Assembly (NCBI GenBank): GCA_033549025.1
Contig: JAWSUS010000004.1
Coordinates: forward strand, 96,001 to 160,000
Direction: 5' to 3'
DNA: 64,000 nt
Origin: Desulfuromonadales bacterium
GTDB lineage: Bacteria > Desulfobacterota > Desulfuromonadia > Desulfuromonadales > SZUA-540
Below, piece after piece: positions 16,794 to 39,251 of the stretch. A program made the position numbers and the translations under genes. The notes below the pieces were generated by a model. That model was not told where the DNA came from, ran no database searches, and was given only the letters and a program-made list of their open reading frames with translations. Position 1 is the stretch's first letter. Every line of letters begins with the position of its first letter.

Positions 16794-16848
16794 GGGGTGA
16801 GGCGAGAGACGAGGTCATAACGCCTCTCGCCTCACCCCTCACCCCTCT
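16794..16848. repeat. Hairpin built from 7-nt repeats
   Basis: GGGGTGA GGCGAGA ... CGCCTCT CGCCTCA CCCCTCA CCCCTCT between hemE and hemH. Confidence 0.6.
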
Positions 16849-16863
16849 CGGGTTATAGCCATC

Positions 16864-18020: not shown

Positions 18021-18041
18021 AAATCGTTTCAGCGCCCAAGC

Positions 18042-18076
18042 AAAAAGGGCCTCCCGCAGTGGGGAGGCCCTTTTTT
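18042..18076. terminator. Bidirectional intrinsic terminator
   Basis: AAAAAGGGCCTCCC-loop-GGGAGGCCCTTTTTT. Confidence 0.8.
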
Positions 18077-18966: not shown

Positions 18967-19267
18967 GCGGTCTCCTGCTTATGTAGAGCCTGTGTCGGAA
19001 CTTACTATAATTACGCCTGCCCGCTGCGTCAAGCGCGCCCGGTCAAAATGCAGGGGTAAAGGCACATTCCTTGCTTTGTATGGAGCCTGAATGTGACGCA
19101 GGACGGTCCGCCAAGACAGAGAGTGCAGGTTCCGCTTGACCCCGCCGGTGGGCTGTTCTATGTTTTTTCGTGCGGGTGTGGGTTGAAAATACCCATCTTC
19201 CCGGTTATTTGACCAGGTCGGTCCAGGTCCTTTGAATCCATTCCATCCTCCAACCCAAGGAGCTACG

Positions 19268-21720: not shown

Positions 21721-22362
21721 TCAGGCATCCCATTTGCTGTGGCGATGCTCGGCGTAGTCGCGGCGCACCTTGCCCGTGAACATGGTGGGGAGGAGGGGAC
21801 GGTTGGCCTTGATCAGAAAAGCGCCGAGATGGGCGACGAACAGGCCGAGGAAGGCCATGGTCGCCAGGGTGTGGGTCAGGGTGACCACCTGCAGAAAGGT
21901 CGGATCCAGCGTGATGACGCCGGTGTTTTTGTAGACCTTGATCAGGCCGGTGGCGATGAGCAGCAGCGAAGTGAGACCCATGGCCGCGTAGGCGAGGCGC
22001 TGTTCGGCCAGAAACTTGCCGCTCGGCGGCTCTTCCTGGCCCGTCAACATGGCCTTGATGATCTCGACGCTCTCTTTGACATCCCCTTTTTGCGGGACGG
22101 CGGCGAATTCGCGGCGGCGCAGATGAAAGACCAGGTGAAAAAAGACGGCGACGGTAAAGACTATGGCCGCCAGATAATGGATGACCTGCTGGACCAGAAA
22201 ATCCGAAGCCCAGCCCAGTCCCGGCAGTTCGTTGACATAGAAGCGACCGTACAGAGGCATGGTACCGAAGCCGGAAAAGATCAGAACCAGGCCGCTGATG
22301 GCCACGGCCCAGTGAGTCAGGCGCACGGCGCCATCATGACGCAATACGTAATTATTTTTCAT
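21721..22362 (-). CDS. Di-heme cytochrome b membrane subunit (FdnI/PhsC-like)
   Basis: RLTHW, VIHY, GKFLAEQRLAY, LTHTL and VAHL His-bearing TM helices; ATG 22362 overlaps the upstream Fe-S gene. Confidence 0.85.
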   Translation of the reverse strand: MKNNYVLRHDGAVRLTHWAVAISGLVLIFSGFGTMPLYGRFYVNELPGLGWASDFLVQQVIHYLAAIVFTVAVFFHLVFHLRRREFAAVPQKGDVKESVEIIKAMLTGQEEPPSGKFLAEQRLAYAAMGLTSLLLIATGLIKVYKNTGVITLDPTFLQVVTLTHTLATMAFLGLFVAHLGAFLIKANRPLLPTMFTGKVRRDYAEHRHSKWDA

Positions 22363-23326
22363 CGTTCTTCTCCCGTTTCGATACCGTGGCGGCAAAGGCA
22401 CCGACGACGCCGGCCACCGGGGCGAGCAGGGCCGCCTTGGCCAGGGCGCTCTGCTTTTCCAGGGCGTTTTCAGGGTTATGCAAGCGCATGACCTTGGCGG
22501 AATCAGCCCCTTGTCGCAGGGCGACATCGATCTGGTCAAAGGGCACTTTGGAAACATACAGGGTCGCGGTGCCGCCGTGTTCCGTATTGCCATAAAGGTG
22601 ACCGGAGTAAGAAGCGGCCAACGCCTCCGCCTGTCGCAGAATATCCTGGCGGTGTCCAATGTGCATGGCGCCACGAGGGCAGGCCGTCATGCAGGCGGGC
22701 TTTTCGCCTCGGGCCAGATCGTCGCGGCAGAGGTCGCATTTGTACATGACGCCGCCGCCGACGGGAGCGGGGTCGAGATAGGTATAGACGCCGACGCCGG
22801 CCTGACGCTGGGGCACATCCCAGGGGCAGACGGTGCGACACTTGGCGCCGCCGAAGCAGAGGGACGGGTCGATATGCACAGGCCCGTCCTTGTCCTTCTT
22901 GGCGGTGCCGAAGGGGCAGAGCTTGACGCAGGGGGGATTGTCGCAGTGCATGCAGCGGCGCGGGATGCTCAGTTCCTGTGGCTGGCCATCGACCTCGACG
23001 GCGACCTTCTGCACGAAGAGCCAGTTGTAGGGGGTCAGGCGTTCCGTCAACTCGCGGCGGCCGCTCCAATCCTCATGGGATTTTTGGGGCCAGTAATCCT
23101 TGAGCATGGCCGGATCGGGCTCGGGAAAGCGGGAGGCGTTGTGCTGGCGGCAGGCCGACACACAGGCTGGCGTGTCCTTGCCGGGGCAGCCGTCGCAGCG
23201 GGTGAGATCGATCAGGGTGGCGTAGGAATCGTCGGCAAGAGCCGCCTGCGCCCGGCCCTTCGGGACGACCGTGGCCGCGGTGGCCGCTGCCATGCCGGCC
23301 AGAAAGCTTCTGCGGGAAAATTTCAT
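22352..23326 (-). CDS. Tat-exported 4Fe-4S dicluster electron-transfer subunit (FdnH/PsrB-like) with C-terminal TM anchor
   Basis: SRRSFL Tat motif; four Cys groups CDGC..C..C, CMHCDNPPCVKLCP, CFGGAKCRTVCP and CDLC..CMTACP. Confidence 0.88.
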   Translation of the reverse strand: MKFSRRSFLAGMAAATAATVVPKGRAQAALADDSYATLIDLTRCDGCPGKDTPACVSACRQHNASRFPEPDPAMLKDYWPQKSHEDWSGRRELTERLTPYNWLFVQKVAVEVDGQPQELSIPRRCMHCDNPPCVKLCPFGTAKKDKDGPVHIDPSLCFGGAKCRTVCPWDVPQRQAGVGVYTYLDPAPVGGGVMYKCDLCRDDLARGEKPACMTACPRGAMHIGHRQDILRQAEALAASYSGHLYGNTEHGGTATLYVSKVPFDQIDVALRQGADSAKVMRLHNPENALEKQSALAKAALLAPVAGVVGAFAATVSKREKNDEK

Positions 23327-23383
23327 AGACACCTCTTTTTCATTTCTTGCGGAAAGTTCAATGGGCTTTGTTTTGGCTGAAAT

Positions 23384-23395
23384 GAACGTTCGTTC
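23384..23395. promoter_or_regulatory. Palindromic operator GAACG-TT-CGTTC (copy 1)
   Basis: Perfect 5-2-5 palindrome about 58 bp upstream of the Fe-S gene; near-identical copy at 34650-34663. Confidence 0.6.
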
Positions 23396-23415
23396 GGTGC
23401 GAGTAGGTAAAAAAT

Positions 23416-24012
23416 CTATCTGCTGACCGATTTCCAGGAACATTGCCAAACCGGTTCGAAATAACGCGATACCTTGTCTTGGATAAGACCGTCCAGGAAA
23501 AGATAGACCATGCGCATGGGGCCTCCAAACAGGCTGGTAACCGCCACGATGGGATCCATAACCGCGATTTCCCCATTATCCATCCCTTCCTGAACCATCT
23601 GTTTCATCAGGGCGAAAGGGCTGGACGAACAGATGGGGACGCCGTCCGACATGAACTCGCGATGGCGGGCGTTCAGGATAAACTCCGTGGCCGCCGGCTG
23701 GTTGTCCGCCATGGAGAGCAGCAGAGCGATCGCCGCCCGGCAGCGCTCATAGGCGCTGGTGTGTTGGGCCAGAATGTTGCGCATGGCCTCTTCCATTTGT
23801 GTCAGCAGGTCGTGGTGGATCGCCTTGGCGATGGCTTCTTTGCTGGCAAAATGGTGATAGATGGAGCCGATGCTGATGTCCGCTTCCTTGCGGATATCCT
23901 GTACGGAGGTATTGAAATAGCCGTTACGGGAAAAGAGCCCCAAGGCCGTATCGAGAATCAGCCTCCGGGTCGCATCGGGTGTGGATGTTTTTGTCCTGGC
24001 CTCAGTCGTCAT
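23416..24012 (-). CDS. TetR/AcrR-family regulator
   Basis: GYFNTSVQDIRKEADISIGSIYHHFASKE HTH. Confidence 0.92.
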   Translation of the reverse strand: MTTEARTKTSTPDATRRLILDTALGLFSRNGYFNTSVQDIRKEADISIGSIYHHFASKEAIAKAIHHDLLTQMEEAMRNILAQHTSAYERCRAAIALLLSMADNQPAATEFILNARHREFMSDGVPICSSSPFALMKQMVQEGMDNGEIAVMDPIVAVTSLFGGPMRMVYLFLDGLIQDKVSRYFEPVWQCSWKSVSR

Positions 24013-24136: not shown

Positions 24137-24970
24137 TCAGGGAGTGACCGCTTCCAGCGGTGACAGGGGGGGGATGTCCAGGGTCTGCACGAGTTGGGAA
24201 AACTCGCCGTCTTTGAAGACGATGGGTAGCATGCGGGTGAGGGGGCGAAGCTTGCGGGGGTTTTTGAGCCAATCCTCCAGGTCTTTTTCGGACCAGGGCG
24301 CATCCTTGCCCGGTTTTTCAGGGCTGCGCGGATAATAGGGGGTGAGTAGGCCGGAGAGGTTGGGGGCCGTTTCACCCTCACCGAGCCCACCCTCTTTCAA
24401 GGTGAGGGCGCGGTGACAACCGCCACAGCGTTTGGCGAAGATGTTTTCCGAGGCGGCGCCTTCTTTCTCGAAGTGAATGACCAGCGGCGTCTCGGCGAGC
24501 GATGGCGGGGCAGCGGCCCCTTCTTTAAGCAGAAGCGTCACCATGGCAGCAAGATCATCAGGCCCGAAACGGAAGTCGGGCATCAGGGCCACGGGTTGGC
24601 GGATACTCTCTTCCAGTTCCAGCGGTGGCGTGACGGCGGCGGCGCGGTCAAGATTGCTGGCCAGGGTGGTGCCCTTGCCGCCCAGAGTGTGGCAGCGCCG
24701 GCAGCCGGCCTGGTCGGCCAGGGTGGTGCCGCGTTTTACCACGGGAGAGTCGGTCTGGTTGAAGGTGGCATGGCGGCCGGGCACGAAGCGGTCATGAGCG
24801 ATCTCCTGGCGCTTGGTGCCGGGGTGCCCGCGATGGCAGTCGGTGCAGGTGCCCTGACCGTCAAAATGAGTCTCATGACAGCGCAGGCACAAGGGTTGAC
24901 CGGCTGCGCAGGAAGCGCCCACGGGCATAGCCAGCAGAAAAAGAATCAGAAAGGCAACACGAAAGCCCAA
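24137..24970 (-). CDS. extS: Tetraheme c-type cytochrome, ExtS-like
   Basis: 4 CxxCH (CLRCH, CTDCH, CRRCH, CGGCH) and a signal peptide; last gene of the ext-type cluster. Symbol assigned by gene order. Confidence 0.7.
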   Translation of the reverse strand: MGFRVAFLILFLLAMPVGASCAAGQPLCLRCHETHFDGQGTCTDCHRGHPGTKRQEIAHDRFVPGRHATFNQTDSPVVKRGTTLADQAGCRRCHTLGGKGTTLASNLDRAAAVTPPLELEESIRQPVALMPDFRFGPDDLAAMVTLLLKEGAAAPPSLAETPLVIHFEKEGAASENIFAKRCGGCHRALTLKEGGLGEGETAPNLSGLLTPYYPRSPEKPGKDAPWSEKDLEDWLKNPRKLRPLTRMLPIVFKDGEFSQLVQTLDIPPLSPLEAVTP

Positions 24971-25359
24971 TTTTCACCTCGAAAAAACATGGCAATCAGC
25001 GTCAGGGTCAAAATGCCGAAGAAGGCGACCAGGCAGAGGGCGGTGGCCAGACGCTGATCACGGCCAAACCAGCGAGCGCGGGTGGCCGGAGGCGATCCTG
25101 GCAGGAAGGGGAGCAGCAGAAAGACCAAGGCACCGACGATGATGAGATAGACCAGGTACTTGGAATAGCTCACCAGTTCCTGGGTCCACAGCAGGAACCA
25201 GGCGGATTTGACGGGATTGGGCACGGTGGCGATGTCAGCCGGCCCCTGCAACGGAGCGGGGAGGAGCAGGGCCAGCCCCATGAGCACGAGGCAGGTGACC
25301 CATGCCGCCCTTTTGATGAGAGGAAAGAAACCCTCGGTGCTGAAAACGTATTTTTTCAT
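24946..25359 (-). CDS. extQ: Cytochrome b subunit IV-like membrane protein, ExtQ-like
   Basis: PAPLQGPAD..PNPVKSAWFLL and three TM helices; ATG 25359 overlaps the cytochrome b stop. Confidence 0.75.
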   Translation of the reverse strand: MKKYVFSTEGFFPLIKRAAWVTCLVLMGLALLLPAPLQGPADIATVPNPVKSAWFLLWTQELVSYSKYLVYLIIVGALVFLLLPFLPGSPPATRARWFGRDQRLATALCLVAFFGILTLTLIAMFFRGENWAFVLPF

Positions 25360-25982
25360 AGGTAGGGCAACACTCCCTTGTCTCGCCGGATGCGGTAAAA
25401 ATGCAGCAGGCAGAGGGCGAGCATGCAGGCCGGCACAAAGACGATATGCAGGGCGTAAAAACGCAGCAGCGACAGCTCGCCGCCGACCTCGTCGGGCACC
25501 AGAATCCGTTTCAGCGCCGGGCCGCCGGGTACCGTGGCTAGCAGCTCCATCCCCGTCTGCGTGGCCCACAGGGCGAGCTGATCCATGGGCAGCAGATAGC
25601 CGGTGTAGGCGGCGAAGACGGCCAGGCAGAGCAGTCCGAAGCCGATAATCCAGTTCAGCTCCCGCGGCTTGCGGTAGGCCCCGGTGAGAATCACGCGCAG
25701 GGTATGTAGGAAGATAAAAATCAGCAGCGCGTGGGAGCAGATGCGGTGCAGGCTGCGGATATAGCCGCCCAGAAAGACGCTGCGCTCCAGGGCCAGAATC
25801 GACTCAAAGGCCTTCTCCGGGGTCGGCTGATAGTAGAAGATCAGCAGCAGGCCGGTGACGATGAGGAGCAAAAAGGCGGTAAAGGCCAGTCCCCCCAGGC
25901 AAAAGGTATAGGTCATCCGCAGGTTGCGTCGCAACACCACGCGAGGGAAGAGATGGGCGATAAAGTCTCTATACACGCTCAA
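25356..25982 (-). CDS. extP: Cytochrome b (N-terminal b/b6-type), ExtP-like
   Basis: CLGG, TGLLLIFYY, RSLH..LHTLR, NWIIG, TGYLLP and RFYALH..LLHF motifs. Confidence 0.85.
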   Translation of the reverse strand: MSVYRDFIAHLFPRVVLRRNLRMTYTFCLGGLAFTAFLLLIVTGLLLIFYYQPTPEKAFESILALERSVFLGGYIRSLHRICSHALLIFIFLHTLRVILTGAYRKPRELNWIIGFGLLCLAVFAAYTGYLLPMDQLALWATQTGMELLATVPGGPALKRILVPDEVGGELSLLRFYALHIVFVPACMLALCLLHFYRIRRDKGVLPYL

Positions 25983-26381
25983 TCAGGCCTTTCCGCTGTA
26001 GATCGTCAACAGGTCGCCACGTTCTTCCAAAGCCAACCGCCGCAGGGGCTCGTCGGCCGGGCCGGACAGTACGGCGCCGTCGCGGGCAAAGAGGCTGCCG
26101 TGACAGGGACAGACCAGGTTCGTGGGGGTGACCGACACCGTACAGCCCAGATGGGTGCAGGTCAGGTCCAGGGCGAACACCTCTTCGCCCTGACGGATGA
26201 CGGCCACCCGTGCCTGGCGAAAGACCAGGGCGCCGTCGGGGGGGATGTCACCTCGTGGGACCTCCAGCAACACCTGCTGCGGGGCGGCCTTGGGAAAGAG
26301 AAATTTGCCGACCAGCAGAGCCAGCCCCGAAAAAGTCAGGGTTTTGAGGAGGTATCGACGCTTTCGACCAAACTTTTCCAT
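25983..26381 (-). CDS. extO: Rieske [2Fe-2S] protein
   Basis: CTHLGC and CPCHGS boxes; KRRYLL Tat-like start at ATG 26381. Symbol assigned by gene order only. Confidence 0.8.
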   Translation of the reverse strand: MEKFGRKRRYLLKTLTFSGLALLVGKFLFPKAAPQQVLLEVPRGDIPPDGALVFRQARVAVIRQGEEVFALDLTCTHLGCTVSVTPTNLVCPCHGSLFARDGAVLSGPADEPLRRLALEERGDLLTIYSGKA

Positions 26382-27568
26382 TTTTCGATATAAGCCTTGG
26401 TGTAGGTGGACGTCGGTGTGCTCAGGCGCTCGTAGCGTTCTGGCGTCATGAACTGGCCGTTGACCAGGGTCTGTCCTTCCTGACTCCAGAAAGAGGGCAA
26501 CGGCAGACCGTCGCGCTGCAGTTCGTAGATACGGTCTCGGGGGTCTTCCAGCAGAAAGCGGCGCGGATTGTCGTGGCAGGCCTCGCAGGTCGCCGTGCCG
26601 CGACGGATGGTATGGGGAAAGAAGGCTTTCCACTGGGCGGCGACCAGGGCGTTTTCCACCCGATTCGGATCATCCTTTTGGCGCAGGTCCGAGTAAAAGG
26701 CGATGAACTGGGGCCGGATTGGGCTGACCTTGCCGCGACTGTTCAGCCCCAGGGGGGGCGCGTTCTGCTGGCGCAGATAGGCGCTCTGCACATATTCATC
26801 GGCCGGATTCTGCTTGAGATTGAAGTACTCGCGGTTGGGGTTGTTCCCCAGTCGCAGGAAAAAGCTGCCGTATTCCTGGGGTGCCCAGCTGGCGTGGCAG
26901 GCAGTGCATTCCAGTTGTTCCCGATGGGCGGCGATGCGGTGCTCGACAATGGTCGGGTCCGGTTCATGGCAGTCCGTGCATTCCTTGGCGCTGAGACGGC
27001 CGTCCACCAGGCTCTGCATGCTGTGGCAGTCGCCGCAGCTCAGCCCCGCTTCCTCATGCACGTCGGGGCGCATCTTCAGGTAGGCTTGGCCGTCGACGAT
27101 TTCGCCCCGCTGGTAGCGGTTGTGATTCTCTCGCGGCGCCCGTCCGAAAAAGTCGGCGCCGACAAAATAGCCCTGGTGACAGCGGTGGCAGGTGTCCGAA
27201 GTCGGGCGCGTGAGGGTATGGATGTCCGCCCCGTGGCAATCAGCGCAGGAACTTACATGGCAGTCGGCGCAGTTCTTTTGGAAAAAGTCAGCGTCATGGG
27301 CTCCGAAAGCGCCGTGTACGAAGGCCTTCTCAGCGCTGCGGGTGGTCATGGCCTGGGTAAATATAGCTTCATAGCCGCCGTGGCAGTCCGCACATGCCCG
27401 TGCCCCGTCGCGCACCGGGCCGGCGTCGCCTGTCGTATGGCAGTCGGCGCAGCTGAGGTCGCCATGGGCGCCGCTGAGGCGTTTTGTGGTGGGGTCGGCC
27501 ACGGCCGCCCCGCAGAGGCTAAGGCCGAGCAGGCACAGAGCGCTCAAGGCAGCGATCCAGCGCGCCAT
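26336..27568 (-). CDS. extN: Multiheme c-type cytochrome (9 CxxCH), ExtN-like
   Basis: 9 CxxCH counted; signal peptide; PHTIRR..CEACH C-terminal pattern. Symbol assigned by gene order. Confidence 0.8.
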   Translation of the reverse strand: MARWIAALSALCLLGLSLCGAAVADPTTKRLSGAHGDLSCADCHTTGDAGPVRDGARACADCHGGYEAIFTQAMTTRSAEKAFVHGAFGAHDADFFQKNCADCHVSSCADCHGADIHTLTRPTSDTCHRCHQGYFVGADFFGRAPRENHNRYQRGEIVDGQAYLKMRPDVHEEAGLSCGDCHSMQSLVDGRLSAKECTDCHEPDPTIVEHRIAAHREQLECTACHASWAPQEYGSFFLRLGNNPNREYFNLKQNPADEYVQSAYLRQQNAPPLGLNSRGKVSPIRPQFIAFYSDLRQKDDPNRVENALVAAQWKAFFPHTIRRGTATCEACHDNPRRFLLEDPRDRIYELQRDGLPLPSFWSQEGQTLVNGQFMTPERYERLSTPTSTYTKAYIEKWKSLVESVDTSSKP

Positions 27569-29402
27569 AGTCGAGTTCCTTTTGGTAGATGGGGTCTTTG
27601 GGGTTGTCGTGGCAGACCAGACATAGGTTGACCGCCAGCACTTTCTTCACCTCTGCCCCATTGAGGGGCCGGGAGTTCTCGCGGGTGATGGCGGAAAAGG
27701 CCTTTACCTTGCCGTTCTCCATCGTCAGATAACCGTCCAGAGGCTTGCTGTCTGATTTTTCGCACAGCAGGGTCCCTTCGATGGTGGCGCCCTCGATGAC
27801 ATGCTGCCCAAAACCGAGGAAAGACGGATTGCCATGACACTCGGCGCAGCCGACAGCCCGGGTGCCGGTGTTGTGGCTGTAAAAGGGGGCGAAACGCAGC
27901 TGTTGGCGGTCGCCGAAGCGGGCCACGTACTCGTCCTTGCTCTTGCGGCCGTCGCGTTCGATGACGGTGACGAAGGTCTGGCAGCCCGGTGTCACCGGCG
28001 AAACCTTCCCGCGCTGGTTCAAGGCCAGGGGGAAGGGGTAAAGCATGCGAAAATCTTCTGTTTCGCTGAAGGCGCCGGGGGTGTCGTAGCCCTTGACAAA
28101 ATCGCGAGCGTTGCGGGTGAGGTCGTACTCGGTGTGACAACCGTAGCACTGCACCACCGTACGCGAATGGCAGCTGTAACATTCGAGGCGGTCGTGGCCG
28201 ACGATGGTGTGCTCCGGCGTGTCGGTGATGACCTTCGATTCATGTAGCTTACCGCTGCGCTTGCCCTGCAGCCAGATCTTGCCGTCCTGCTCGAAGACGT
28301 TGGCGTATTTGCGCCTCTTGGCTGTCAGCACCATGTTGGCGCCGTAGGTCATGGGCAGCTTGTAGCTGCGCGATTCTACCAAAGCGCTGTCGTTCTCACG
28401 GCTGATGGCTTCCAGCCGTGGGTGCTCCCGGGCGCCGCCGTGACAGTCTTCGCAGGCGGTCTCCGTCTGCAGATACATATTCTCGTAGGCGTAGCCATCC
28501 CCCATGACATCGCGGGAGGTGTGGCAGTCGATGCAGTCCATCCCCTTGGCGTGGTGGATGTCGGGGGCGATGCTGGTGACGTTGCGCACGCTGCCGATGA
28601 GTTCAGGGCCGGGGATGGCGTCTCGGGTGGGCACCAGGCTGTTGTTGCCGTCATTAAGGCCCTGGTAGGAGAGGGCGATGCGCCCACTGCGGTTGTGACA
28701 GCGGAAGCAGACCTTGTTGTCGGGCAGGGCGGCCATTTCATGGCTGGCCGAATAGGGCCACTTGCCATGCACCGTCTCGTCGCCGCCCTGGTAGGTGGCG
28801 TTGTCGTTGTAGGGGAAATGGCAGGCGGCGCAGCCCGCGCCATGGCTGCCCGTCCAAATCTGATTAGCTTCCTGGCCGACGTGGCAGAGTGAACAGCCCT
28901 TGCGATAGAGTTCACCGGCGAGATTGTTGAGGTCTTTGACGGGGTGCAGTTTTTGCGGGTCGCCCTTGGCGTCAAAAACCTCCTCCTGGCGGGTGCCGTA
29001 CAACTGGCCGTCTACACCCTCCCAGGTGAGTTGGGCGTTTTTGATGATGCCGGTGTTGGTGTACATCAGGTTGGAGCGGACCCGTTTCAGTTGGCTCTCG
29101 TGGCAGCCGCCGCAGCCCTTGTCCCAGAACGCGGGGTCTGCCGGATTCTTTTTGCCGAACATGCCCCGGTGGGCGGCGTCCTTGTTGTCGGTGCCGGGGT
29201 CGCCGCCGTGACAGGTCGTGCAGGCGCCGTGGGTGGGGGAGGCGAGCTCCAGCCCCTGGTGGCAGCTCTCGCAGCGGGACTCCTCGTCCTGGCTGGTGGT
29301 GCAGCCGATGGCGGATAAAAGGAGCAGGACAGCCAAGGCCCAATATGACAGAAGACGATGCAGCGGCATAGATTCAGTAATGATGGATGATGGCGATTTC
29401 AC
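27519..29402 (-). CDS. extM: Dodecaheme c-type cytochrome lipoprotein, ExtM-like
   Basis: 12 CxxCH counted; lipobox-like AIGC. Start is uncertain (29402 or 29369). Confidence 0.82.
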   Translation of the reverse strand: MKSPSSIITESMPLHRLLSYWALAVLLLLSAIGCTTSQDEESRCESCHQGLELASPTHGACTTCHGGDPGTDNKDAAHRGMFGKKNPADPAFWDKGCGGCHESQLKRVRSNLMYTNTGIIKNAQLTWEGVDGQLYGTRQEEVFDAKGDPQKLHPVKDLNNLAGELYRKGCSLCHVGQEANQIWTGSHGAGCAACHFPYNDNATYQGGDETVHGKWPYSASHEMAALPDNKVCFRCHNRSGRIALSYQGLNDGNNSLVPTRDAIPGPELIGSVRNVTSIAPDIHHAKGMDCIDCHTSRDVMGDGYAYENMYLQTETACEDCHGGAREHPRLEAISRENDSALVESRSYKLPMTYGANMVLTAKRRKYANVFEQDGKIWLQGKRSGKLHESKVITDTPEHTIVGHDRLECYSCHSRTVVQCYGCHTEYDLTRNARDFVKGYDTPGAFSETEDFRMLYPFPLALNQRGKVSPVTPGCQTFVTVIERDGRKSKDEYVARFGDRQQLRFAPFYSHNTGTRAVGCAECHGNPSFLGFGQHVIEGATIEGTLLCEKSDSKPLDGYLTMENGKVKAFSAITRENSRPLNGAEVKKVLAVNLCLVCHDNPKDPIYQKELDYGALDRCLERSVPARP

Positions 29403-29579: not shown

Positions 29580-30896
29580 TTAAAGTTTACTGACCTTCAC
29601 CGTTTTGACCTCTTCCTTCCAGAGGAAGGGGTCGCTCTGCTTGTTGCCGTAAGGCAGATACCAGAGCTGCACTTTCAGTTCCATTTCCGTTTGCCCTTCG
29701 GGGAAGCGGATTTCAAAGTGTTCCTTGACTTTCTTTCCCGGGTGTAGCCCGGTGTCGGCAATGATGCCGCTCTTCTCGTAGGGGCCGCGGCCCATTTCGT
29801 CGCCCCGCGCAAATTTCTGCGGGATAGGCATGTAGATCTTGTCCTGATTGTAAACTTCCTGACCATCCTTCGTTGTAGCGATTACCGACAGAACCAGTCG
29901 GTTGGGGGTCGGTCAGCCATCGGGGATGGCGTGGCCGGTGCGGTTGGTCATGGCCACGTCAAGCATGACCTGAGGCACCACATTACGGCCGTCACGCCAG
30001 TTCATAGCATTGGCATGGACTTCAAACTCCACGGCCCGATCCGCCATGCCTTTGTCGCGGTAGCTCTGCATGTTGTGGCCGAGCCCGCTCTCTTGCATGT
30101 GACACTCCTGGCAGGTCTGGTCGCCGCCGCCGGCTACGTAGGACCAGAGGTAGCTGCCATAGGCCGTGGCGCACTGAGTGGGGTTGTCCAGCTCCAGGTT
30201 GGGCCCGAGGCCGTGACACTGGCCGCAGAGGATCGACTCCTTCATGATGGGGCTGGCCTTCATGACCGGGAAGTCGGCATCCATGTGTTCGCCGTCCACG
30301 TTACCGTAGACCACGCCGGCCTGCGGATAGCCGTCGGCCCACTTGTGGGTGATGGCCATGCGGTTGTGGCAGACCAGGCAGTTGATGTTGAGCTTGAGCA
30401 GGGTTTCCTTCTTGGCTTCGAAGGTCTTCATGTCGTCTTCGGCGTAGGCGTTCATGAAGTCGTAGATGGTGCCGACGAATTCCTTGGCCACGGCGTCGGT
30501 GGCGTCAGCCAGCTGGGGCAGGTGGCACTTGGCGCAGCCCATCAGGTGTTCGACTTCGACATCCTTGGGGTCGGTGACGCCCGAATAGGCCCAGGACATA
30601 AAGCCGTTGGTAAAGGCGGTCTTGAAAGTGGCGGCGGTACGGCCGGTGCCGTACACCGAGCGGGAGTGAGCCGATTGGGCCCACTCGTCATGCGCCTCCT
30701 GGTGGCAGTCGACGCAGGAGCTCGAATCGTACATGTCGATCAGCTCCTGCAGGGTGTTCGCTTTGCCTTTTTTGGCGGCGATGGTGCCGTCCTTGCCGAT
30801 GCCCGCCGCCTCGCTGGGAGAGGGAGCCAGGCCAAAGGTGGCAGCCGCCAGGAAAGCGAGACCCCAGATACTAAGAGTCCTTCCTGTCGCGTTCAT
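29580..30896 (-). CDS. extKL: Five-heme c-type cytochrome selenoprotein ExtKL (in-frame UGA = Sec at 29913-29915), 438 aa
   Basis: ORFs 29913-30896 and 29580-29831 are in one frame and join without another stop: [40 protein letters not shown]. 5 CxxCH; SECIS-like hairpin 10 nt downstream of the UGA. Confidence 0.9.
29884..29902 (-). promoter_or_regulatory. Bacterial SECIS-like stem-loop
   Basis: mRNA ACCGAC-UGGUUCU-GUCGGU, starting 10 nt after the UGA, with G in the apical loop. Confidence 0.75.
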
Positions 30897-30937: not shown

Positions 30938-30981
30938 AAAAAAATCAGGGCAGATCAGGCCCATTTAAGCCCGACCTGCCC
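30938..30981 (-). terminator. Hairpin with U-tract between extJ and extKL
   Basis: Minus strand GGGCAGGTCGGGC-loop-GCCTGATCTGCCC then TGATTTTTTT. Confidence 0.5.
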
Positions 30982-30993
30982 CGAGGGTGGGAA

Positions 30994-31236
30994 TTAGCAG
31001 CCCATCAGCATGTCTTTGCCTTTTTTAGGGGCGGCTTTCTTCTCTTCTTTTTCTTTCTTTACTTCCACTTTCACGGCATCGCCGACGCTCACGTCAGCCG
31101 CATCGCCTTTTTCCACTTCAATAGTGACCGTTTTGCCGCTGACGGCGGTGACCTTGCCTTTAAGCTCGGCTTCGTCAGCGAAGGCGACGCCGGCGCTCAG
31201 CAGGGTGATAGCGGTCAGAATAAGCAGTTTTTTCAT
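30994..31236 (-). CDS. extJ: Small periplasmic protein ExtJ-like with C-terminal GC
   Basis: Signal peptide (AFA|DE), small beta-rich core, Lys/Glu linker, ends MLMGC. Confidence 0.82.
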   Translation of the reverse strand: MKKLLILTAITLLSAGVAFADEAELKGKVTAVSGKTVTIEVEKGDAADVSVGDAVKVEVKKEKEEKKAAPKKGKDMLMGC

Positions 31237-31268: not shown

Positions 31269-32453
31269 TTAAAAAATCAGCTGCAGCTGGGCAGCCAGGG
31301 TGTTGATATCCTCGGTCTTCTCGCCACCGAAGAACCCTTCCTGGTCGAAGTCTGCCACAGAATACTCAACAGTCAACTTGAGATCCTGGCCGCGCAGATA
31401 ATAGTTGAAGCCAGCGGCGTAGGCGGTGATTTCCTGGTCAACCACATTGTTCAAGGTGGCAAAAGACCAGTCTTCATAACGGGCGAAGATCTGCAGCGGA
31501 GTGTTGGGCAGCATGTAGCCGGCCTTGTAGTAAGAGCCGTTTTTCTCGCCGTTGATGCCGGTGAGGCCGGTAGCGGTGTTGGTCTGGTAAGCGTCGTCGA
31601 GATCATAGTCGACGTAGGCGCCGGACAGGGTGAAGGTGCCGACATCTTCGACCGGATACTCGAAGAAGCCGTCCACGGTCCAGGCGGCGTAATCGACGGA
31701 ACCGCTATTGGGAGCTTCGTACTCGACGTCAGACTCGAACTGGTAGGCGGCGCCCACGGTGAGGACCTTCTTCTCGCCCATGTAGGTGCCTTTGTAGCCG
31801 TAGCCGGTCTCTTTGTCGAACAGGCTCACATGACCGCGTGCGCTGTAGCGCAGGTTCGATTTGGGGGTGGAGTCGCTGTCGTTGCGGCCGTTCATGGCGT
31901 CAACGCGGTACTGGAACATGCCGTCAGCCAGATTGCCCCACACGGCCACCCCTTTGTCGCGGGTGCTGACATAAGGGGCGCGGATGAAGTACGACCGGTC
32001 GAGGGTCAGGGGCGCCTCGCAGGCTTCGAGGTTTTCACGGGTCAGGTTGTATTTGAACTGACCGACCCAGATGTTGACCTGCTCGTTGAGCTTGAAGCGC
32101 ATGACGGCATCCAGAATGCGGAAATCCGAGTTGTCGCCGTCACTGACGGAAATAGATCTGATGTTGTTGTCCTCGTTGAATTCGGTCTGCACATAGAGGC
32201 CGAAGTTGGAGCCGTAGGCGCCCATGAGGGCCAGACGGTTGCGACGGAAGTTGAACTCGCTGGCCGACTCGTCATTGTTCTCACCGGCGCCGGTGTCACG
32301 ATGGTTGAACTGGAACTGACCTTTGTACTCCAGTTTGAGCAGGCCCTGGTCCTCGGGACCAAACTGCCAGACGGGTCCGGCCACGGCCGTAGAGGCCAAC
32401 AGCATCATGCCCGCGAGGGAAGTTACGATATGACGTAGTTTCACGGTATTCAC
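31269..32453 (-). CDS. extI: Outer-membrane porin (OprO/P-like), ExtI
   Basis: Signal peptide, FNFRRNRL, amphipathic strands and C-terminal QLQLIF; lies between rhodanese and extJ. Confidence 0.85.
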   Translation of the reverse strand: MNTVKLRHIVTSLAGMMLLASTAVAGPVWQFGPEDQGLLKLEYKGQFQFNHRDTGAGENNDESASEFNFRRNRLALMGAYGSNFGLYVQTEFNEDNNIRSISVSDGDNSDFRILDAVMRFKLNEQVNIWVGQFKYNLTRENLEACEAPLTLDRSYFIRAPYVSTRDKGVAVWGNLADGMFQYRVDAMNGRNDSDSTPKSNLRYSARGHVSLFDKETGYGYKGTYMGEKKVLTVGAAYQFESDVEYEAPNSGSVDYAAWTVDGFFEYPVEDVGTFTLSGAYVDYDLDDAYQTNTATGLTGINGEKNGSYYKAGYMLPNTPLQIFARYEDWSFATLNNVVDQEITAYAAGFNYYLRGQDLKLTVEYSVADFDQEGFFGGEKTEDINTLAAQLQLIF

Positions 32454-32496: not shown

Positions 32497-33891
32497 TTAG
32501 CACAGAGGCGCATCGCTACCGCTAACAGGCGTAGCCGGACCACTTTCGGCGCCGCCACTGGAAATATAAGCGTCATCCGTCGTTTCAACCTGGTTGGTTT
32601 CGGCCGCGCCCGGCGCGTACCAGTTCTCAAGGTCAGCGCTGAAGGGAGTCCGGTAGATGTCGCTAATTGTCAAGGGGACTATAGAGTCATCTGCGAGTTT
32701 CTTTGTGTTACCGTTTGTAGCATTGTACGAAGGTCCTGTTGTCCCGTCGGTGGAGACCACGTATTGCGAAAGATCCCAAAGGCTCCCAATGGGAAGTCCA
32801 GCGCCGGTCACACTATCGTATCCATCTTCGGCAACGGTGCCGGTAATGGCGGCGTACTGGCCCGCGGTGCTCCAAGAGCCGTCAAAGACCTGGACGGGGC
32901 TACCGAGGATGGCTTCAAGTGCGAAGTAGATCGGGGTGCAGGAGTAGCCGGAAGTGCAGTATGTGATAACTGGCAGGCCCGGTTCCCAGCCCACGGCTTC
33001 AAAAAGGCTTGTAAGATCGTTGGTGGTGTCGGCGTCATCGTCGCTGACAGGCTTGAATTTGCCGTCAGAGCCGAAAAGGGTCCCTTGGGACAACGCTACG
33101 CCGCCAGCGGGGCGACCTTCAAAAACGACGAAATTGCTACCCATTAGGGAGCCAGTCGCGGCTGTACCGTAGAACCCGGAGGTTGTAGAGGTCAGGGAGG
33201 CGCGGGCGTCCATAGTCAGGTAATCGACGCCGTTGACTTCATCTGAGTCCAGTTTGGCAATGAGTTCACCGATGGAAACGCGCAGGTCGCTGTTCAGGGT
33301 CCCCAGATTCTTGACGCTGTAAGTCGAGGGTGTAGGCTCTGGAACTTCTGCAGTCAGTTCAAAACCATCAGCAGCCCAGGCATTATAGCCCCCGTTAAGC
33401 ACTTTCAGGCGTTCCTGAGGGAATCCCCAGTAGCGGAATGTCCAGTAGACGCGGGTTTCAAGATACATAGACCCGGAAGTGACGAAAACGATAGTGGTGT
33501 TCTCGTCGATTCCCAGGCGCTGGATGACGGCGTCCATTTGCTCGCCGGTGGCAACCATTGATCCTGCTGGAGCCAGGCCATCAAGGCGGGTGCCGCGCAA
33601 TTCATTGGTGCCAACACGACAGGCTCCGGGTATCCGGTCACCACTGCTGCCGTACTCGAGGATAACAACCTTATCGTTGAAACTGCTGTCAGTATTGACC
33701 AGGCCCTGATCAATCCAGGCCTTAAGGGTAGCTGGTTCAATAAGTACATCTGTGGCTGAGCCAGCCACCGGGGTGTTGGTGACGGTCGTTGGGGTATCAT
33801 AGCTGTCCGACCCGCAACCCCACATGACCACAGAGGTCAGCAGAGCCAGGGTCACCATCATAAACGATTTTCTGAACGTGCTCAGATTCAT
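32497..33891 (-). CDS. extH: Tandem-rhodanese lipoprotein ExtH-like
   Basis: Lipobox VMWGC; RVYWTFRYWG, LNGGYNAW, active-loop YCTSGY and FDGSWS motifs; ends with Cys. Confidence 0.82.
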   Translation of the reverse strand: MNLSTFRKSFMMVTLALLTSVVMWGCGSDSYDTPTTVTNTPVAGSATDVLIEPATLKAWIDQGLVNTDSSFNDKVVILEYGSSGDRIPGACRVGTNELRGTRLDGLAPAGSMVATGEQMDAVIQRLGIDENTTIVFVTSGSMYLETRVYWTFRYWGFPQERLKVLNGGYNAWAADGFELTAEVPEPTPSTYSVKNLGTLNSDLRVSIGELIAKLDSDEVNGVDYLTMDARASLTSTTSGFYGTAATGSLMGSNFVVFEGRPAGGVALSQGTLFGSDGKFKPVSDDDADTTNDLTSLFEAVGWEPGLPVITYCTSGYSCTPIYFALEAILGSPVQVFDGSWSTAGQYAAITGTVAEDGYDSVTGAGLPIGSLWDLSQYVVSTDGTTGPSYNATNGNTKKLADDSIVPLTISDIYRTPFSADLENWYAPGAAETNQVETTDDAYISSGGAESGPATPVSGSDAPLC

Positions 33892-34693: not shown

Positions 34694-35022
34694 AGAAATG
34701 GTCGAATGGGGCGTTTTAATAGATTGGGATGTTTGAATTCTTGTTAAATCCACATGTTGCGGTGTTTTAATGTCTTTACAGTTTTATCTTGGAAGGGGCG
34801 GGACTGTGGTGTCGCCTGTGCCGCGATTTTGCTGGGAAGGCTGCTTTGGTGGTAAACCCGTGGAGGGAGTGGTCAGCTTGATTGCGGCTGGTCATTTGGC
34901 TGCATTATACAGGTTAAATCACGGAGTCAAGCGAGGCTAAGATATTGTTATATAAGTATTTTTGTTTATAGAGGTATTTGGATTAAGCGAATCGTTTGAC
35001 GCTGCCCAGGCAGAAATGGCCC

Positions 35023-35050
35023 TTGACAGGATGGGCGGAAAAGGTATGAT
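35023..35050 (+). promoter_or_regulatory. sigma70-like promoter of the mob/mod operon
   Basis: TTGACA-16 nt-TATGAT. Confidence 0.55.
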
Positions 35051-35087
35051 TTTGCCGTTGTGCAAAATACGCATATCGGAGGATAGC

Positions 35088-35672
35088 TTGGCAGAATTCG
35101 AGGATGTGACCGGCGTCTTGCTGGCTGGTGGGCAGAGCCAGCGCATGGGGCGTGACAAGGCGACGCTGCCTGTTGGCGGGGTACCGCTTTACCGGCGCGC
35201 CCTGAGGGTGCTGCGGAGCCTTTTCGCCCAGGTTCTCATCGCCGGCGACCGCCCTGATCTGGCTGGCGAGGGTGTGCCCTGCTATGGCGACATCTATCCC
35301 GGCAGCTCCCTCGGCGGGCTCTATACGGGGCTGCTGCGGGCAAGCACGCCCTTCATATTCGTCGCGGCCTGCGACATGCCCTCGCCCGACCCTGCTCTTA
35401 TCCGCAGTCTGCTGTCCTGGCGCCGCGACTTCGACGTGGTGGTGCCGCGCACGCCGGCGGGGCTGGAGCCCCTCTTCGCCTGCTACGGCAAGGGGTGCCT
35501 GGCACCCATGGAAGAGCTGCTGCGGCAGGGCCGCTACCGCATTTACGATTTTTACGACCAGGTGCGCGTTCGTTACGTGGAGGCGGACGAACTGCCCTCC
35601 GGCTGGCAGCAGGCCCTGCGCAACGTCAATACCCCCGCCGACATGGCGACCATCAAGGAGGAACTGTCATGA
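35088..35672 (+). CDS. mobA: Molybdenum cofactor guanylyltransferase
   Basis: LLAGGQSQRMGRDKA, ACDMP, EPLFACY and NVNTPAD motifs; TTG start after GGAGGA. Confidence 0.9.
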   Translation: MAEFEDVTGVLLAGGQSQRMGRDKATLPVGGVPLYRRALRVLRSLFAQVLIAGDRPDLAGEGVPCYGDIYPGSSLGGLYTGLLRASTPFIFVAACDMPSPDPALIRSLLSWRRDFDVVVPRTPAGLEPLFACYGKGCLAPMEELLRQGRYRIYDFYDQVRVRYVEADELPSGWQQALRNVNTPADMATIKEELS

Positions 35673-36178
35673 ACGTACCCGTTGTTTCGGTCGTGGCCAA
35701 AAGCGGCACCGGCAAGACGACCCTGCTGGAGAAGCTCATTGCCGGCCTGAAGGGGCGCGGCTACCGGGTGGGGGCGCTCAAGCACGACGCCCACCGCTTC
35801 GAGATGGATCACGAGGGCAAGGATTCCTGGCGGCTGACCCAGGCCGGCGCCGCCACCACCGTGATCACCTCGCCGGCCAAGATTGCCATGATCAAGATGA
35901 ACCGCGACGCCCAGGAGCCGCCGCTGGAGGAGACGATCCAGCGGCTTTTCGCCGATGTGGACATCGTGATGACCGAGGGCTTCAAGAAGAGCGCCATGCC
36001 CAAGATCGAAGTGCACCGCACCGCCCGCAGCGAACGTCTGCTCTGCCGGGATGAAGAGCACGACCCCACCCTTATCGCCGTGGCCTCCGACGCCGGACTG
36101 CAGCTGGATGTGCCGGTCTTTCATATCGATGACGCCGAAGCGATCTGCGATTTCATCGAAGCGCGGTTTTTGCGGTGA
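35669..36178 (+). CDS. mobB: Molybdopterin-guanine dinucleotide biosynthesis protein B
   Basis: SGTGKTTLLEKLI, KHDAH, GKDSWR and EGFK motifs. Confidence 0.92.
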   Translation: MNVPVVSVVAKSGTGKTTLLEKLIAGLKGRGYRVGALKHDAHRFEMDHEGKDSWRLTQAGAATTVITSPAKIAMIKMNRDAQEPPLEETIQRLFADVDIVMTEGFKKSAMPKIEVHRTARSERLLCRDEEHDPTLIAVASDAGLQLDVPVFHIDDAEAICDFIEARFLR

Positions 36179-36510
36179 CCACTGTGCAGGCCCGTTCGAA
36201 AGTCTGGCTGGAGGTCGACGGTCAGCCGCTCTTGGGAGATGGCCGCGAACGCCTTCTGCGCCTGGTGCATGAAACGGGCTCCATCAGTGCGGCGGCCCGG
36301 GCGATGGGCGTCTCGTACCGCAAAGCCTGGACCCAGCTGCAATGCATGGAGGACCTGCTGACTTGGCCGTTGCTGGTGCGGCAGAAGGGTGGGGCGCAGA
36401 AGGGGAAAACGTCCTTGACGCCTGAAGCCCTGGAGCTGTTGCAGCAGTTCGACGACCTCAAGCAAGGGGTGCGCGAGTTTGTCGATGCCCGCTATCGGGA
36501 GGTCTTCTGA
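36175..36510 (+). CDS. modE: ModE-type winged-helix protein lacking molybdate-binding domains
   Basis: GSISAAARAMGVSYRKAW and GG..G...LT; only 111 aa. Confidence 0.8.
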   Translation: MTTVQARSKVWLEVDGQPLLGDGRERLLRLVHETGSISAAARAMGVSYRKAWTQLQCMEDLLTWPLLVRQKGGAQKGKTSLTPEALELLQQFDDLKQGVREFVDARYREVF

Positions 36511-37289
36511 TGGGCCGTCTTCTGCTGCGGGTGCTGCTTGGCCTTGTCTTGATTCTGCCGGGCCGGCCGGCATGGGCTGACGAACTTATGGTCTTTGCCG
36601 CCTCGTCCCTGACCGAGGCCTTTACGGAACTCGGCCGGCAGTATGAGCAGGTGCATCCCAACACCCGGGTGGTCTTTCATTTTGCCGGCAGCCAGGCTCT
36701 GGCCGCCCAGATCAGCCAGGGGGCGGCCGTCGATGTCTTCGCCGCCGCGGACGACCAGGTCATGAGCCGCCTGCGGCAGCAGGGGCTGGTCGAAGCGCCC
36801 GCCTTCTTTGCCGGCAATCGTCTGACGCTCATCGTCTCCCGGCAGGCCGTTCAACCGATACCGGACCTCGCTTCGCTGGCCCGACCCGGCAATCTGCTCA
36901 TCCTTGGTGCCCCTTCGGTACCCGTCGGTCGCTACACCCAGCGGCTGCTGGATCGCCTGGCGTCTGACCTGGCCTATGGGCCGACCTTCGTGGCGGGCGT
37001 GCGCCGCAATCTGGTCAGCGAAGAGGCGAGCGTCAAAGCGGTGGCCACCAAGGTGGCGCTGGGCGAGGCCGATGCGGGGGTGGTCTATGTTTCGGACCTG
37101 ACCCCCTATCTGCAGGAGCGGGTGCGGGTTGTCCTTCTCCCGGAAATTCATGTCCCCCCGGTGCGTTATCCCGTCGCCCTGGTGGTCGATTCTTCCCGTA
37201 AGGTGTCCGCCCGGCGTTTTATCGATTATCTGCGCTCCCCCCAGGGACAGCAAATTCTGGCCGCCCACGGCTTTTTACCGGCGAGGTAG
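36510..37289 (+). CDS. modA: Molybdate ABC transporter substrate-binding protein
   Basis: VFAASSL, FAGSQALA, VPVGRY and EADAGVVYVSD motifs. Confidence 0.9.
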   Translation: MGRLLLRVLLGLVLILPGRPAWADELMVFAASSLTEAFTELGRQYEQVHPNTRVVFHFAGSQALAAQISQGAAVDVFAAADDQVMSRLRQQGLVEAPAFFAGNRLTLIVSRQAVQPIPDLASLARPGNLLILGAPSVPVGRYTQRLLDRLASDLAYGPTFVAGVRRNLVSEEASVKAVATKVALGEADAGVVYVSDLTPYLQERVRVVLLPEIHVPPVRYPVALVVDSSRKVSARRFIDYLRSPQGQQILAAHGFLPAR

Positions 37290-37292
37290 GGG

Positions 37293-38162
37293 ATGAAGGC
37301 ATCCGGGCCAAATCAGCCGGCGCCCTGGCAGCCGCTGGATTTCCACCCTGAACGCAGCCGGCGCCGACGACGCACCGCCTGGCTGTTCAAGGCAGGGCTG
37401 TTCGCGGCCACGGCCCTCCTGGTGCTGCTGCTCCTTCTTCCCGTCGCTGCTCTGTTGCTGCACGTGACTCCGGCCCGCCTGCTGGAACTGCTGACCGCCG
37501 CCGACGTGGCCGCCGCTCTGCGGGTGACGCTGCTCTCCTCGGCTGCTTCGACGCTCCTGATCTTTCTGCTGGGGCTGCCGGTGGCCTACGCCGTCTCTCG
37601 CCACCTCGGCCGGGGGCGTTTTCTGCTCGACAGCCTGCTGGAGCTGCCCATGGTCATGCCGCCCGTGGTGGCCGGTCTCGCCCTGCTGCTGGCTTTCGGT
37701 CGCCGGGGACTGGTCGGCGTCTGGCTGGCGGAGCTGGGCATTCAGCTCCCCTTCACACTGGCGGCGGTAGTGCTGGCCCAGCTCTTCCTGCTCACCCCCT
37801 ATTTCGTCAAGCGGGCCGTCGTCCTCTTCGACGGGGTCGACCGGCGGCTCGAAGAGGCCGCCATCCTGCTGGGGGCCGGCCCCTTCCGCACCTTCTTTTC
37901 TGTCAGCCTGCCCCTCTGTCGCCGTGGCCTGCTGGCCGAAGCGGTCATGGCCCTGGCCCAGGGGGTCGGCATGTTTGGGGCCGTCATCCTCTTTGCCGGC
38001 AATCTGCCGGGACGGACGCAAACCCTGTCCCTGGCCATCTACAGCACCTTCGAGGGGAACCCTGAAAAAGCTTTTGCCCTCTCCGCTCTGCTGCTGGTGC
38101 TGTCCTGTCTCCTGTTGCTGTGCTTCCGTCTGATCTCCCGCCCCTTGGCGCAGGAGGGCTGA
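37293..38162 (+). CDS. modB: Molybdate ABC transporter permease
   Basis: LPMVMPPVVAGLALL, EEAA..LGA and FAGNLPGRTQTL motifs. Confidence 0.9.
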   Translation: MKASGPNQPAPWQPLDFHPERSRRRRRTAWLFKAGLFAATALLVLLLLLPVAALLLHVTPARLLELLTAADVAAALRVTLLSSAASTLLIFLLGLPVAYAVSRHLGRGRFLLDSLLELPMVMPPVVAGLALLLAFGRRGLVGVWLAELGIQLPFTLAAVVLAQLFLLTPYFVKRAVVLFDGVDRRLEEAAILLGAGPFRTFFSVSLPLCRRGLLAEAVMALAQGVGMFGAVILFAGNLPGRTQTLSLAIYSTFEGNPEKAFALSALLLVLSCLLLLCFRLISRPLAQEG

Positions 38163-38163
38163 G

Positions 38164-39237
38164 ATGGCGACGCTGCGTTTCGACCTGACCTGCCCCTTGC
38201 GGGACTTCACCCTGCAAGCGGCCCTTGAGGTTCCCAGCGGTGTGACGGTGTTGATCGGCCCCAACGGCAGCGGCAAAAGCACTCTGCTTCGGTTGCTGGC
38301 CGGCCTGACAACGCCGGGTGACGGGCAGGTACGCATCGACGATCACATCCTTTACGATGCCGCCCGCCGCTTCAATCTGCCCCCCCAGGATCGCGGTCTG
38401 GGCATGGTCTTTCAGGACCTGGCTCTCTTCCCTCATCTGAACGTGGGCCAGAACCTGGCTTTCGGCTTGCGCGCCCGCCGTCTGCCGCGCCGGGAGCAGG
38501 ACAGCCGCGTGGCCGCCATGCTCGAACGCCTGGGGCTGCGGGAGCTGGCGGCGGAGCCGGTCGGGGCCCTGTCGGGTGGCCAGCGGCAGAAGGTGGCCCT
38601 GGCCCGGACCCTCATGGTCGCGCCCCGGGCGCTGCTGCTCGATGAGCCGACGGCGGCGCTGGATCAGGGGAGCCGCTGGGAGATGAGGCGCTGGCTGGGG
38701 GAGATTCTGATGCAGTTGCCCATCCCGACGGTGCTGGTCAGCCACGACCCGGCCGACGCTTCCTATTTTCGCAAGCGTCTCGCCGTGCTCGAGCAGGGGC
38801 GCATCAGCCAGCAGGGGAGCTACCATCAGCTGCTCCATTCGCCCACCACCCCCTTTGTCGCCCAGTTTGCCGGGGTCAATTTTATCCCAGGCCGGGTGGT
38901 GGATAGCGGCGGCCAGACCGCCTTTCACAGTGACGGCGGCGTGAGTTTTCTGGCCCCCTTCGAGCAGGTACGCCCGGGCCCGGCCTGTCTGACTATCTAT
39001 CCCTGGGAGGTCGCCCTCTATCGCGCGGTGCCTGAGGGTAGCCCCCGCAATATTCTGCCGGGGGAAGTGACGGAGATCATCACTGTGGGGGATACGGTGC
39101 GCGTCACCGTGAGCGGACGGGAGAAGCTGGTCGCCGAGATCAGTTATCGGGGATTTCTCGGTATCGGCCCCCTGCAGGTGGGGGAGACAGTCTATGCCAT
39201 CTTCAAGGCGCGGGAGACGCGCGTGGAAAATACCTGA
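38164..39237 (+). CDS. modC: Molybdate ABC transporter ATPase with TOBE domain
   Basis: GPNGSGKS, LSGGQRQ and LLLDEP motifs; C-terminal SPRN..FKA TOBE-like region. Confidence 0.88.
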   Translation: MATLRFDLTCPLRDFTLQAALEVPSGVTVLIGPNGSGKSTLLRLLAGLTTPGDGQVRIDDHILYDAARRFNLPPQDRGLGMVFQDLALFPHLNVGQNLAFGLRARRLPRREQDSRVAAMLERLGLRELAAEPVGALSGGQRQKVALARTLMVAPRALLLDEPTAALDQGSRWEMRRWLGEILMQLPIPTVLVSHDPADASYFRKRLAVLEQGRISQQGSYHQLLHSPTTPFVAQFAGVNFIPGRVVDSGGQTAFHSDGGVSFLAPFEQVRPGPACLTIYPWEVALYRAVPEGSPRNILPGEVTEIITVGDTVRVTVSGREKLVAEISYRGFLGIGPLQVGETVYAIFKARETRVENT

Positions 39238-39251
39238 AACGAGGGAAATAG

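Follow-up and report, generated by a model that had tools for sequence, protein, structure and literature searches.

Does the in-frame TGA that interrupts a multiheme cytochrome gene on the minus strand of a Desulfuromonadales contig end the protein, or is it read as selenocysteine, and what would the complete product do? The question was raised by a stretch of 64 000 nucleotides (the window), in which a sequence-only reading had joined a 327-aa ORF with five CxxCH motifs to an 83-aa ORF beyond the TGA, as one hidden selenoprotein of 438 aa, of the ExtKL type and in an operon of ext layout. The features at the gene itself are as follows.

29580–30896, minus strand: mccSep/extKL, predicted 438-aa five-heme selenoprotein through read-through of one in-frame TGA
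29772–29774, minus strand: K375, equivalent to K372 of MccSep, 3' of the TGA
29884–29902, minus strand: SECIS-type hairpin, 6-bp stem, 7-nt loop, -8.1 kcal/mol
29913–29915, minus strand: in-frame TGA, codon 328, opposite U325 of Geobacter sulfurreducens MccSep
30099–30716, minus strand: five CxxCH heme motifs, a span that includes R86, H125 and C242
30171–30173, minus strand: C242, predicted distal ligand of heme 2, matching C239 of MccSep

Identity of the interrupted gene

Both ORFs were found as that reading had described them. The 327-aa ORF (30896–29913, minus strand) closes with GHAIPDG and the TGA, and a further 110 codons continue in the same frame, passing through the 83-aa ORF, to a TAA at 29582–29580, for a total of 438 residues; the TGA (29915–29913) is the only internal stop in the minus-strand frame from 30896 to 29580, and the CxxCH motifs, at residues 61, 121, 173, 224 and 262, all precede it. 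The read-through protein scored 621.5 bits (cut-off 250) over profile positions 13–422 of 423 against NCBIfam NF040886 ('multiheme c-type cytochrome (seleno)protein ExtKL'), of which it is the sole match in its own genome, and its residues 13–436 aligned (E 5e-190) with PDB entries 9WT8 and 9WT9, the MccSep protein of G. sulfurreducens. In this alignment codon 328 faces the Sec (X) and the U325A residue, and five catalytic positions are all kept, R86, H125, C242, codon 328 and K375 corresponding to R83, H122, C239, U325 and K372, the roles of which are taken from PMC13510729; by this match, H125 would be the proximal and C242 the distal ligand of heme 2. K372 is required for full MccSep activity (PMC13510729), and its equivalent K375, like the whole Ig-like domain, lies past the TGA and therefore exists only after read-through. 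The N terminus (basic, hydrophobic, then Ala) is signal-peptide-like and aligns with the cleaved signal of MccSep. We conclude that the window gene is orthologous to MccSep (ExtKL), within a characterized family of which it is an unremarkable representative.

The hidden gene proved to be no novelty, since the recoded family is already known from a curated NCBIfam model and from biochemistry, structure and genetics published in 2026, to which the window gene adds one ortholog. The selenocysteine, structure and polysulfide-reductase activity of MccSep were reported in Sci Adv (PMC13510729; this and the other papers are cited here from the accessible parts of their text), and a review of 2026 lists the ExtKL pair among the selenoprotein families. 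According to PMC13510729, in which the family comprises 637 listed sequences and the analysis covered the Sec/Cys set of homologs, Geobacter MccSep is a single 49-kDa product with a Se peptide seen by MS, carries 0.96 Se and 4.9 Fe in each subunit, and forms a tetramer, the structure of which was solved at 1.75 Å. It reduces polysulfide and, more weakly, selenite, with a sevenfold preference for polysulfide; the U325C protein loses most activity, a deletion mutant is impaired in growth on S0, and the purified protein handles free polysulfide by itself. How polysulfide enters the periplasm, which components transfer the sulfur and what donates the electrons were left open in that report. Sequence, residues, machinery and conservation are the evidence gathered here, and Sec, hemes, tetramer, activity and phenotype come from the Geobacter ortholog only; it is from these that we infer Sec insertion and function in the window organism. 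The practical use of recognizing the recoding lies in correct annotation and in the prediction of Se-dependent sulfur respiration in this organism.

Decoding of the TGA codon

The sel genes that the sequence-only reading had proposed to look for are present in the genome that holds the window: selA (624 bits), selB (384 bits) and selD (362 bits) all exceed their cut-offs and are adjacent on contig C5, selD itself holding one internal TGA, and a tRNA-Sec with a TCA anticodon lies on contig C3. Three further selenoprotein candidates of this genome, picked by motif and then confirmed by family scan, also become whole when a TGA is read through, namely a SelW-like gene, which at 81.8 bits falls slightly short of its cut-off of 88, and two genes for formate dehydrogenase alpha subunits.

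The codon is conserved well beyond the window. The NF040886 cut-off is exceeded in 18 of 61 related genomes (own included), with one TGA in all 18 matches, and in 35 of 301 genomes of a phylum sample, where 39 of 41 matches have one TGA and two paralogs in one genome have none. Tandem MccSep paralogs were seen in G123 (C12:96118–98740), where two have no stop at all, and in G216 (L101), where both have the TGA. At all 49 loci read, a subset of the matches made up of the own locus and the best-scoring loci of the near and phylum sets, the column of codon 328 holds TGA and never TAA or TAG. Downstream conservation was as predicted, mean identity to the window protein being 0.72 before the TGA, 0.71 over the next 27 residues and 0.68 beyond.

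The database homologs number 1402, and of the best 120 among them 103 stop exactly before this column, as would be expected if standard gene callers split the gene in the manner foreseen by the earlier reading, and 17 are full-length, four of them with Cys and 13 with G, T, V, I or A. These 13 (P0076, P0077, P0082, P0085, P0089, P0093, P0094, P0097, P0100, P0102, P0117, P0118 and P0120) group together in the protein tree as a single clade (100/99) next to that with Cys, and they retain all five hemes as well as the His and Cys of heme 2; the fold thus exists without a chalcogen residue. The clade falls outside the Sec/Cys set of PMC13510729. The sequence-only reading had expected U or C at this column, which agrees with the TGA at 49 of 49 loci and with the four Cys homologs, but not with the 13 members of the separate clade; homologs with neither residue had been named as counter-evidence, and such homologs do occur in part, without refuting the recoding.

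Were the TGA a true stop, the locus would hold a heme-domain gene and a separate 83-aa protein, or else a pseudogene or a sequencing error. The 83-aa ORF does have an ATG start, gene callers end the protein at the TGA, and the study that flagged the stop-codon pair GSU2937 and GSU2936 in 2007 found no SECIS and left open a conserved operon as the alternative (PMC1914089). The 27 codons between the TGA and that ATG are, however, conserved like the remainder, TAA and TAG never take the place of TGA, the Cys homologs run through, and the Geobacter gene yields the one 49-kDa product with its Se peptide (PMC13510729), and we regard a true stop as extremely improbable. Just as little likelihood attaches to a reading of UGA as another residue (Trp or Cys) through a variant code or leakage: nothing in its favour was found here, though natural Cys versions exist in the four full-length homologs noted above, and ordinary window genes end in TGA (extM, extO and extP doing so in overlap with the next start), the Sec machinery is complete, and U325C costs the ortholog most of its activity. 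Machinery, fixed TGA, the Sec column of the solved MccSep and the conserved downstream region all agree with the recoding that had been claimed, and the TGA at codon 328 is almost certainly read as selenocysteine.

A SECIS-type hairpin in two registers

The hairpin was located at 29902–29884, with the 6-bp stem ACCGAC/GTCGGT and the loop TGGTTCT that had been described; it begins 10 nt past the UGA, and the loop follows after 16 nt. Its claimed bacterial SECIS geometry stood as far as the consensus of PMC13188914 is concerned (loop 3–9 nt, stem 4–16 bp, G in loop position 1 or 2, spacing 16–37 nt, energy of -7.5 or below), to which it conforms by our own script with a 7-nt loop, 6 bp, G at loop position 2, -8.1 kcal/mol and a spacing of 16 nt, the lower limit of that model. 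Energy and covariation, however, lent the claim nothing. The folding energy is within the range of shuffled sequences (z of -1.48, -1.34 and +0.09 in three folding windows, where 17, 22 and 106 shuffles out of 200 fold equally well) and was rejected as SECIS proof, and compensatory change was found at none of the six stem pairs among 18 distinct rows, the stem columns being invariant within the clade. A loose genome-wide scan for TGA followed by a hairpin was rejected for listing selenoproteins as too unspecific, because some hairpin was found at 1549 of 21 268 TGA stops with long flanking frames in the own genome (7%).

An equally stable, model-conforming hairpin arises in 18 of 5000 synonymous recodings of residues 329–342. 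Codons 333–337 are identical in all of 20 related genes (one duplicate dropped and two divergent loci left out), as against 3 of 106 comparable codons elsewhere, and at the nine degenerate codons of 329–338 one codon occupies 94% of rows compared with 61% for 106 others; the rows are kin, and the figures are descriptive. The region of codons 333–337, the most frozen of mccSep in this set, has CGA among its invariant codons, though CGA makes up 11% of Arg codons in these genes. By the recodings and the frozen codons, the hairpin is more than chance once protein coding is considered.

Comparison of 46 distinct post-UGA 45-mers separated two registers. All 20 45-mers coding L-S-V/A have the window-type hairpin (-5 kcal/mol or below) and none the other form, whereas none of the other 26 has it and 23 of these form a bulged hairpin, with a bulge position that moves among rows and a loop that again starts UG and lies two codons further downstream. 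Within this distal set (L024, L042, L047 and L049–L071) 92% of cells pair, and its one compensatory change was equalled in 130 of 500 shuffles. In a 35-row protein tree built without the SECIS-coded residues, which needs two register changes as against 11.9 for shuffled labels, 16 proximal rows and one distal row form a clade (100/99) nested among distal rows, so that the distal register is probably the older. We infer that outside the window's clade, in the rest of the phylum, the SECIS hairpin sits two codons further downstream. No statement of two registers was found in the literature searched; in its accessible parts, PMC13510729 folded 30 nt downstream per clade, and the difference may already be partly visible in its clade folding figure. 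The two registers offer a natural pair for the study of how SelB reads spacing.

The ext cluster and its surroundings

The genes around mccSep are as follows.

24137–24970, minus strand: extS, four CxxCH
24946–25359, minus strand: extQ membrane protein
25356–25982, minus strand: cytochrome b, extP-like, 241.6 bits, below the cut-off of 290
25983–26381, minus strand: Rieske protein, in the extO position
26336–27568, minus strand: extN-type cytochrome, nine CxxCH
27519–29402, minus strand: extM, 12 CxxCH
30945–30984, minus strand: terminator-like hairpin of 18 pairs with a T run, between extJ and mccSep
30994–31236, minus strand: extJ, 80 aa, signal-peptide-like N terminus, Lys-rich tail, final Gly-Cys
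31269–32453, minus strand: extI outer-membrane porin, 650 bits (cut-off 150)
32497–33891, minus strand: extH rhodanese-like lipoprotein, 464 aa, with Cys26 lipobox-like, Cys312 active-loop-like and C-terminal Cys464

The extHIJKLMNOPQS cluster is complete, with ten genes in order on one strand, an order that has been described for Desulfuromonadia (PMC5877670, PMC6148476); together with the NF040886 match this upholds the assignment to an ExtKL type in an operon of ext layout. Those relatives that have names are Desulfuromonadaceae and Desulfuromonas, and the host most likely belongs to Desulfuromonadales. The ExtN model gave the ExtN-type cytochrome a slightly lower score than NF040968 ('iron-sulfur subunit ExtO') did, and the Rieske gene matches no Ext model; because a nine-heme cytochrome prefers NF040968 while the true Rieske gene does not match, the name of that model looks misapplied. 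By eye, a GC-rich hairpin of the type at 30945–30984, often with a T run, lies directly 3' of extJ in about 19 of 22 related loci, where it could leave the extHIJ message more abundant than that of mccSep, or stabilize message; no sigma-70-like promoter was found between 29380 and 31300.

Directly after extS, on the same strand, positions 21721–24012 hold a TetR gene, a twin-arginine-type 4Fe-4S protein and a formate-dehydrogenase-gamma-like cytochrome b, with no catalytic subunit adjoining; the 4Fe-4S protein and cytochrome b are a possible second quinone link. The two flanks of the cluster extend over 15758–20677 and 34962–40463, one holding the heme synthesis genes hemE and hemH with an oxidase-like ORF, and the opposite one holding genes that resemble, by eye, what we take to be molybdenum cofactor and molybdate transport genes. 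Parts of extH–extM are covered at 88% likeness or more by contigs of one DNA run and three metatranscriptome runs (two studies); these contigs are mixtures of relatives and were rejected as evidence of expression, strand or level.

Predicted function

The recoded MccSep/ExtKL ortholog very probably reduces polysulfide (and selenite) in the periplasm, in the service of sulfur respiration. The exported protein would receive five c hemes, Sec328 would attack the sulfur chain, Cys242 on heme 2 would form a bridged intermediate, and electrons passing through the heme chain would release sulfide. The co-encoded Rieske protein, cytochrome b and multiheme ExtM–S proteins may serve as a quinol-linked electron source, and ExtI, ExtH and ExtJ may bring in substrate. 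We consider it improbable that the recoded protein instead serves selenite/tellurite reduction or some other electron transfer. Selenite is also turned over by MccSep (PMC13510729), loss of extI by deletion impairs selenite/tellurite reduction and Fe(III) induces the cluster (PMC5877670), and NCBIfam names the neighbours a 'selenite/tellurite reduction operon'; set against this are the sevenfold preference for polysulfide and the growth defect of the deletion mutant on S0 (PMC13510729), the rhodanese neighbour, and active-site residues all identical to those of MccSep. Given that PMC5877670 also ties the cluster to induction by Fe(III) and to selenite/tellurite reduction, the substrate in the window organism is not fixed.

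Terminal cysteines of ExtJ and ExtH

Both ExtJ and ExtH end in cysteine, and tails were compared for the window genes and loci L009–L022 and L072–L093. Of 33 distinct ExtJ segments, 12 run off the edge of their locus; the other 21 are complete, and each ends in Gly-Cys; the search profile lacked the tail, though 19 of the 21 built that profile and were chosen for the terminal Cys, and the 19 loci with a tblastn ExtJ match are all among the 21. All 14 database homologs of ExtJ (one being the window's own) likewise end in Gly-Cys, so that no counter-example was seen among the complete copies and these homologs. For ExtH, searched without its tail, all 20 complete segments finish in Cys (Gly-Cys in 19, Leu-Cys in that of the window), carried on a Gly/Pro/Ser-rich tail. 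By way of background, 26 of 1508 long frames of the own genome end in Cys. The terminal Cys of ExtH is better kept than its rhodanese active-loop motif, which is not recognizable in 9 of 21. Of the 61 genomes, 18 have MccSep and 43 lack it; ExtJ occurs in 16 of the former (one copy being a fragment) and in 2 of the latter, ExtH in 15 and 1. A second ExtH-like rhodanese gene, with a 686-aa frame ending Gly-Gly-Gly-Cys, lies elsewhere in the own genome (L093, G000:C2:65266–69072), and in some relatives, one of the same genus, ExtH is doubled, at about 845–900 aa (L080 and L084–L086; G001, G028, G029 and G014).

The terminal cysteines on flexible tails suggest a persulfide relay to MccSep. In such a relay ExtI would admit polysulfide, sulfane sulfur would be held on the C-terminal Cys of ExtH, a rhodanese lipoprotein of the outer membrane, and of ExtJ, which is small and soluble, with flexible Gly/Pro- or Lys-rich arms as a reductive counterpart of the SoxY arm, Sec328 of MccSep would strip the persulfide, and ExtM–S would give quinol electrons. 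Alternatively, these cysteines might bind a metal or tie ExtH, ExtI and ExtJ to one another. Purified MccSep acts on free polysulfide alone (PMC13510729), which speaks against a relay, as does the neighbourhood of distant MccSep loci, 11 of 12 of which show no gene resembling ExtH or ExtJ on the same strand over a distance of 6.5 kb; a relay is therefore not needed family-wide. The broader proposal, that the cluster encodes an entire periplasmic sulfur-respiration line in which sulfur comes to the selenoenzyme protein-bound via ExtH/ExtJ and not only as free polysulfide, is put forward tentatively, at somewhat less than an even prospect.

ExtJ and ExtH gave no SoxY family match in NCBIfam or Pfam. 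Foldseek and VIA searches of the PDB with ExtJ gave no match, the query being a low-confidence model (pLDDT 63, pTM 0.38), and for this weak model the Atlas returned only ExtJ clusters and a CusF-like lead below 0.9. Membership of the SoxY family was rejected, as neither sequence nor fold kinship was found, and the likeness is to be taken as 'works like'. A complex prediction of ExtJ with two MccSep halves, Sec and hemes omitted, scored 0.02 and gave no verdict. No statement of a relay or of the terminal cysteines was found in the literature searched and the PMC13510729 supplement (subscription papers, including a 2019 ExtI/ExtH paper, lay outside the scope), and the accessible parts of PMC12915048 and PMC12545173 yielded nothing relevant. 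A relay, if true, would fill both gaps left by PMC13510729, sulfur delivery and electron donor, and the invariant terminal cysteines reduce the question of sulfur delivery to two single-codon tests.

Comparison with known systems

With MccSep of G. sulfurreducens (GSU2937–2936; PDB 9WT8–9WTC) the window protein shares the five CxxCH motifs, a heme 2 ligated by His and Cys, the Sec column in PDG-U-PTPNR, the R and K helpers, the signal-peptide-like N terminus, the in-frame UGA with a hairpin downstream and the gene order. It differs in length (438 aa versus 450 aa), in a shorter loop near residue 400, in Ala243 in place of the dispensable Cys240 and in divergent residues at about 139–165; a functional difference is not visible. 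All ten genes, their order and their single strand are shared with the extHIJKLMNOPQS clusters of Desulfuromonadia (PMC5877670, PMC6148476), but ExtN of the window has nine CxxCH compared with the ten reported, and, unlike in the described clusters, TetR genes flank and the 4Fe-4S protein and cytochrome b follow.

The likeness of MccSep to SoxAX, which works with SoxYZ, and to TsdA lies in His/Cys heme chemistry and is an analogy only, drawn by PMC13510729; Sox, unlike MccSep and the ext system, runs oxidatively and without Sec. In SoxY, sulfur is held on the carrier Cys of a swinging arm (PMC6335251), and it is again by analogy only that we liken ExtJ and ExtH to it, sharing as they do a conserved Cys that ends a flexible C-terminal arm (ExtJ 21/21, ExtH 20/20).
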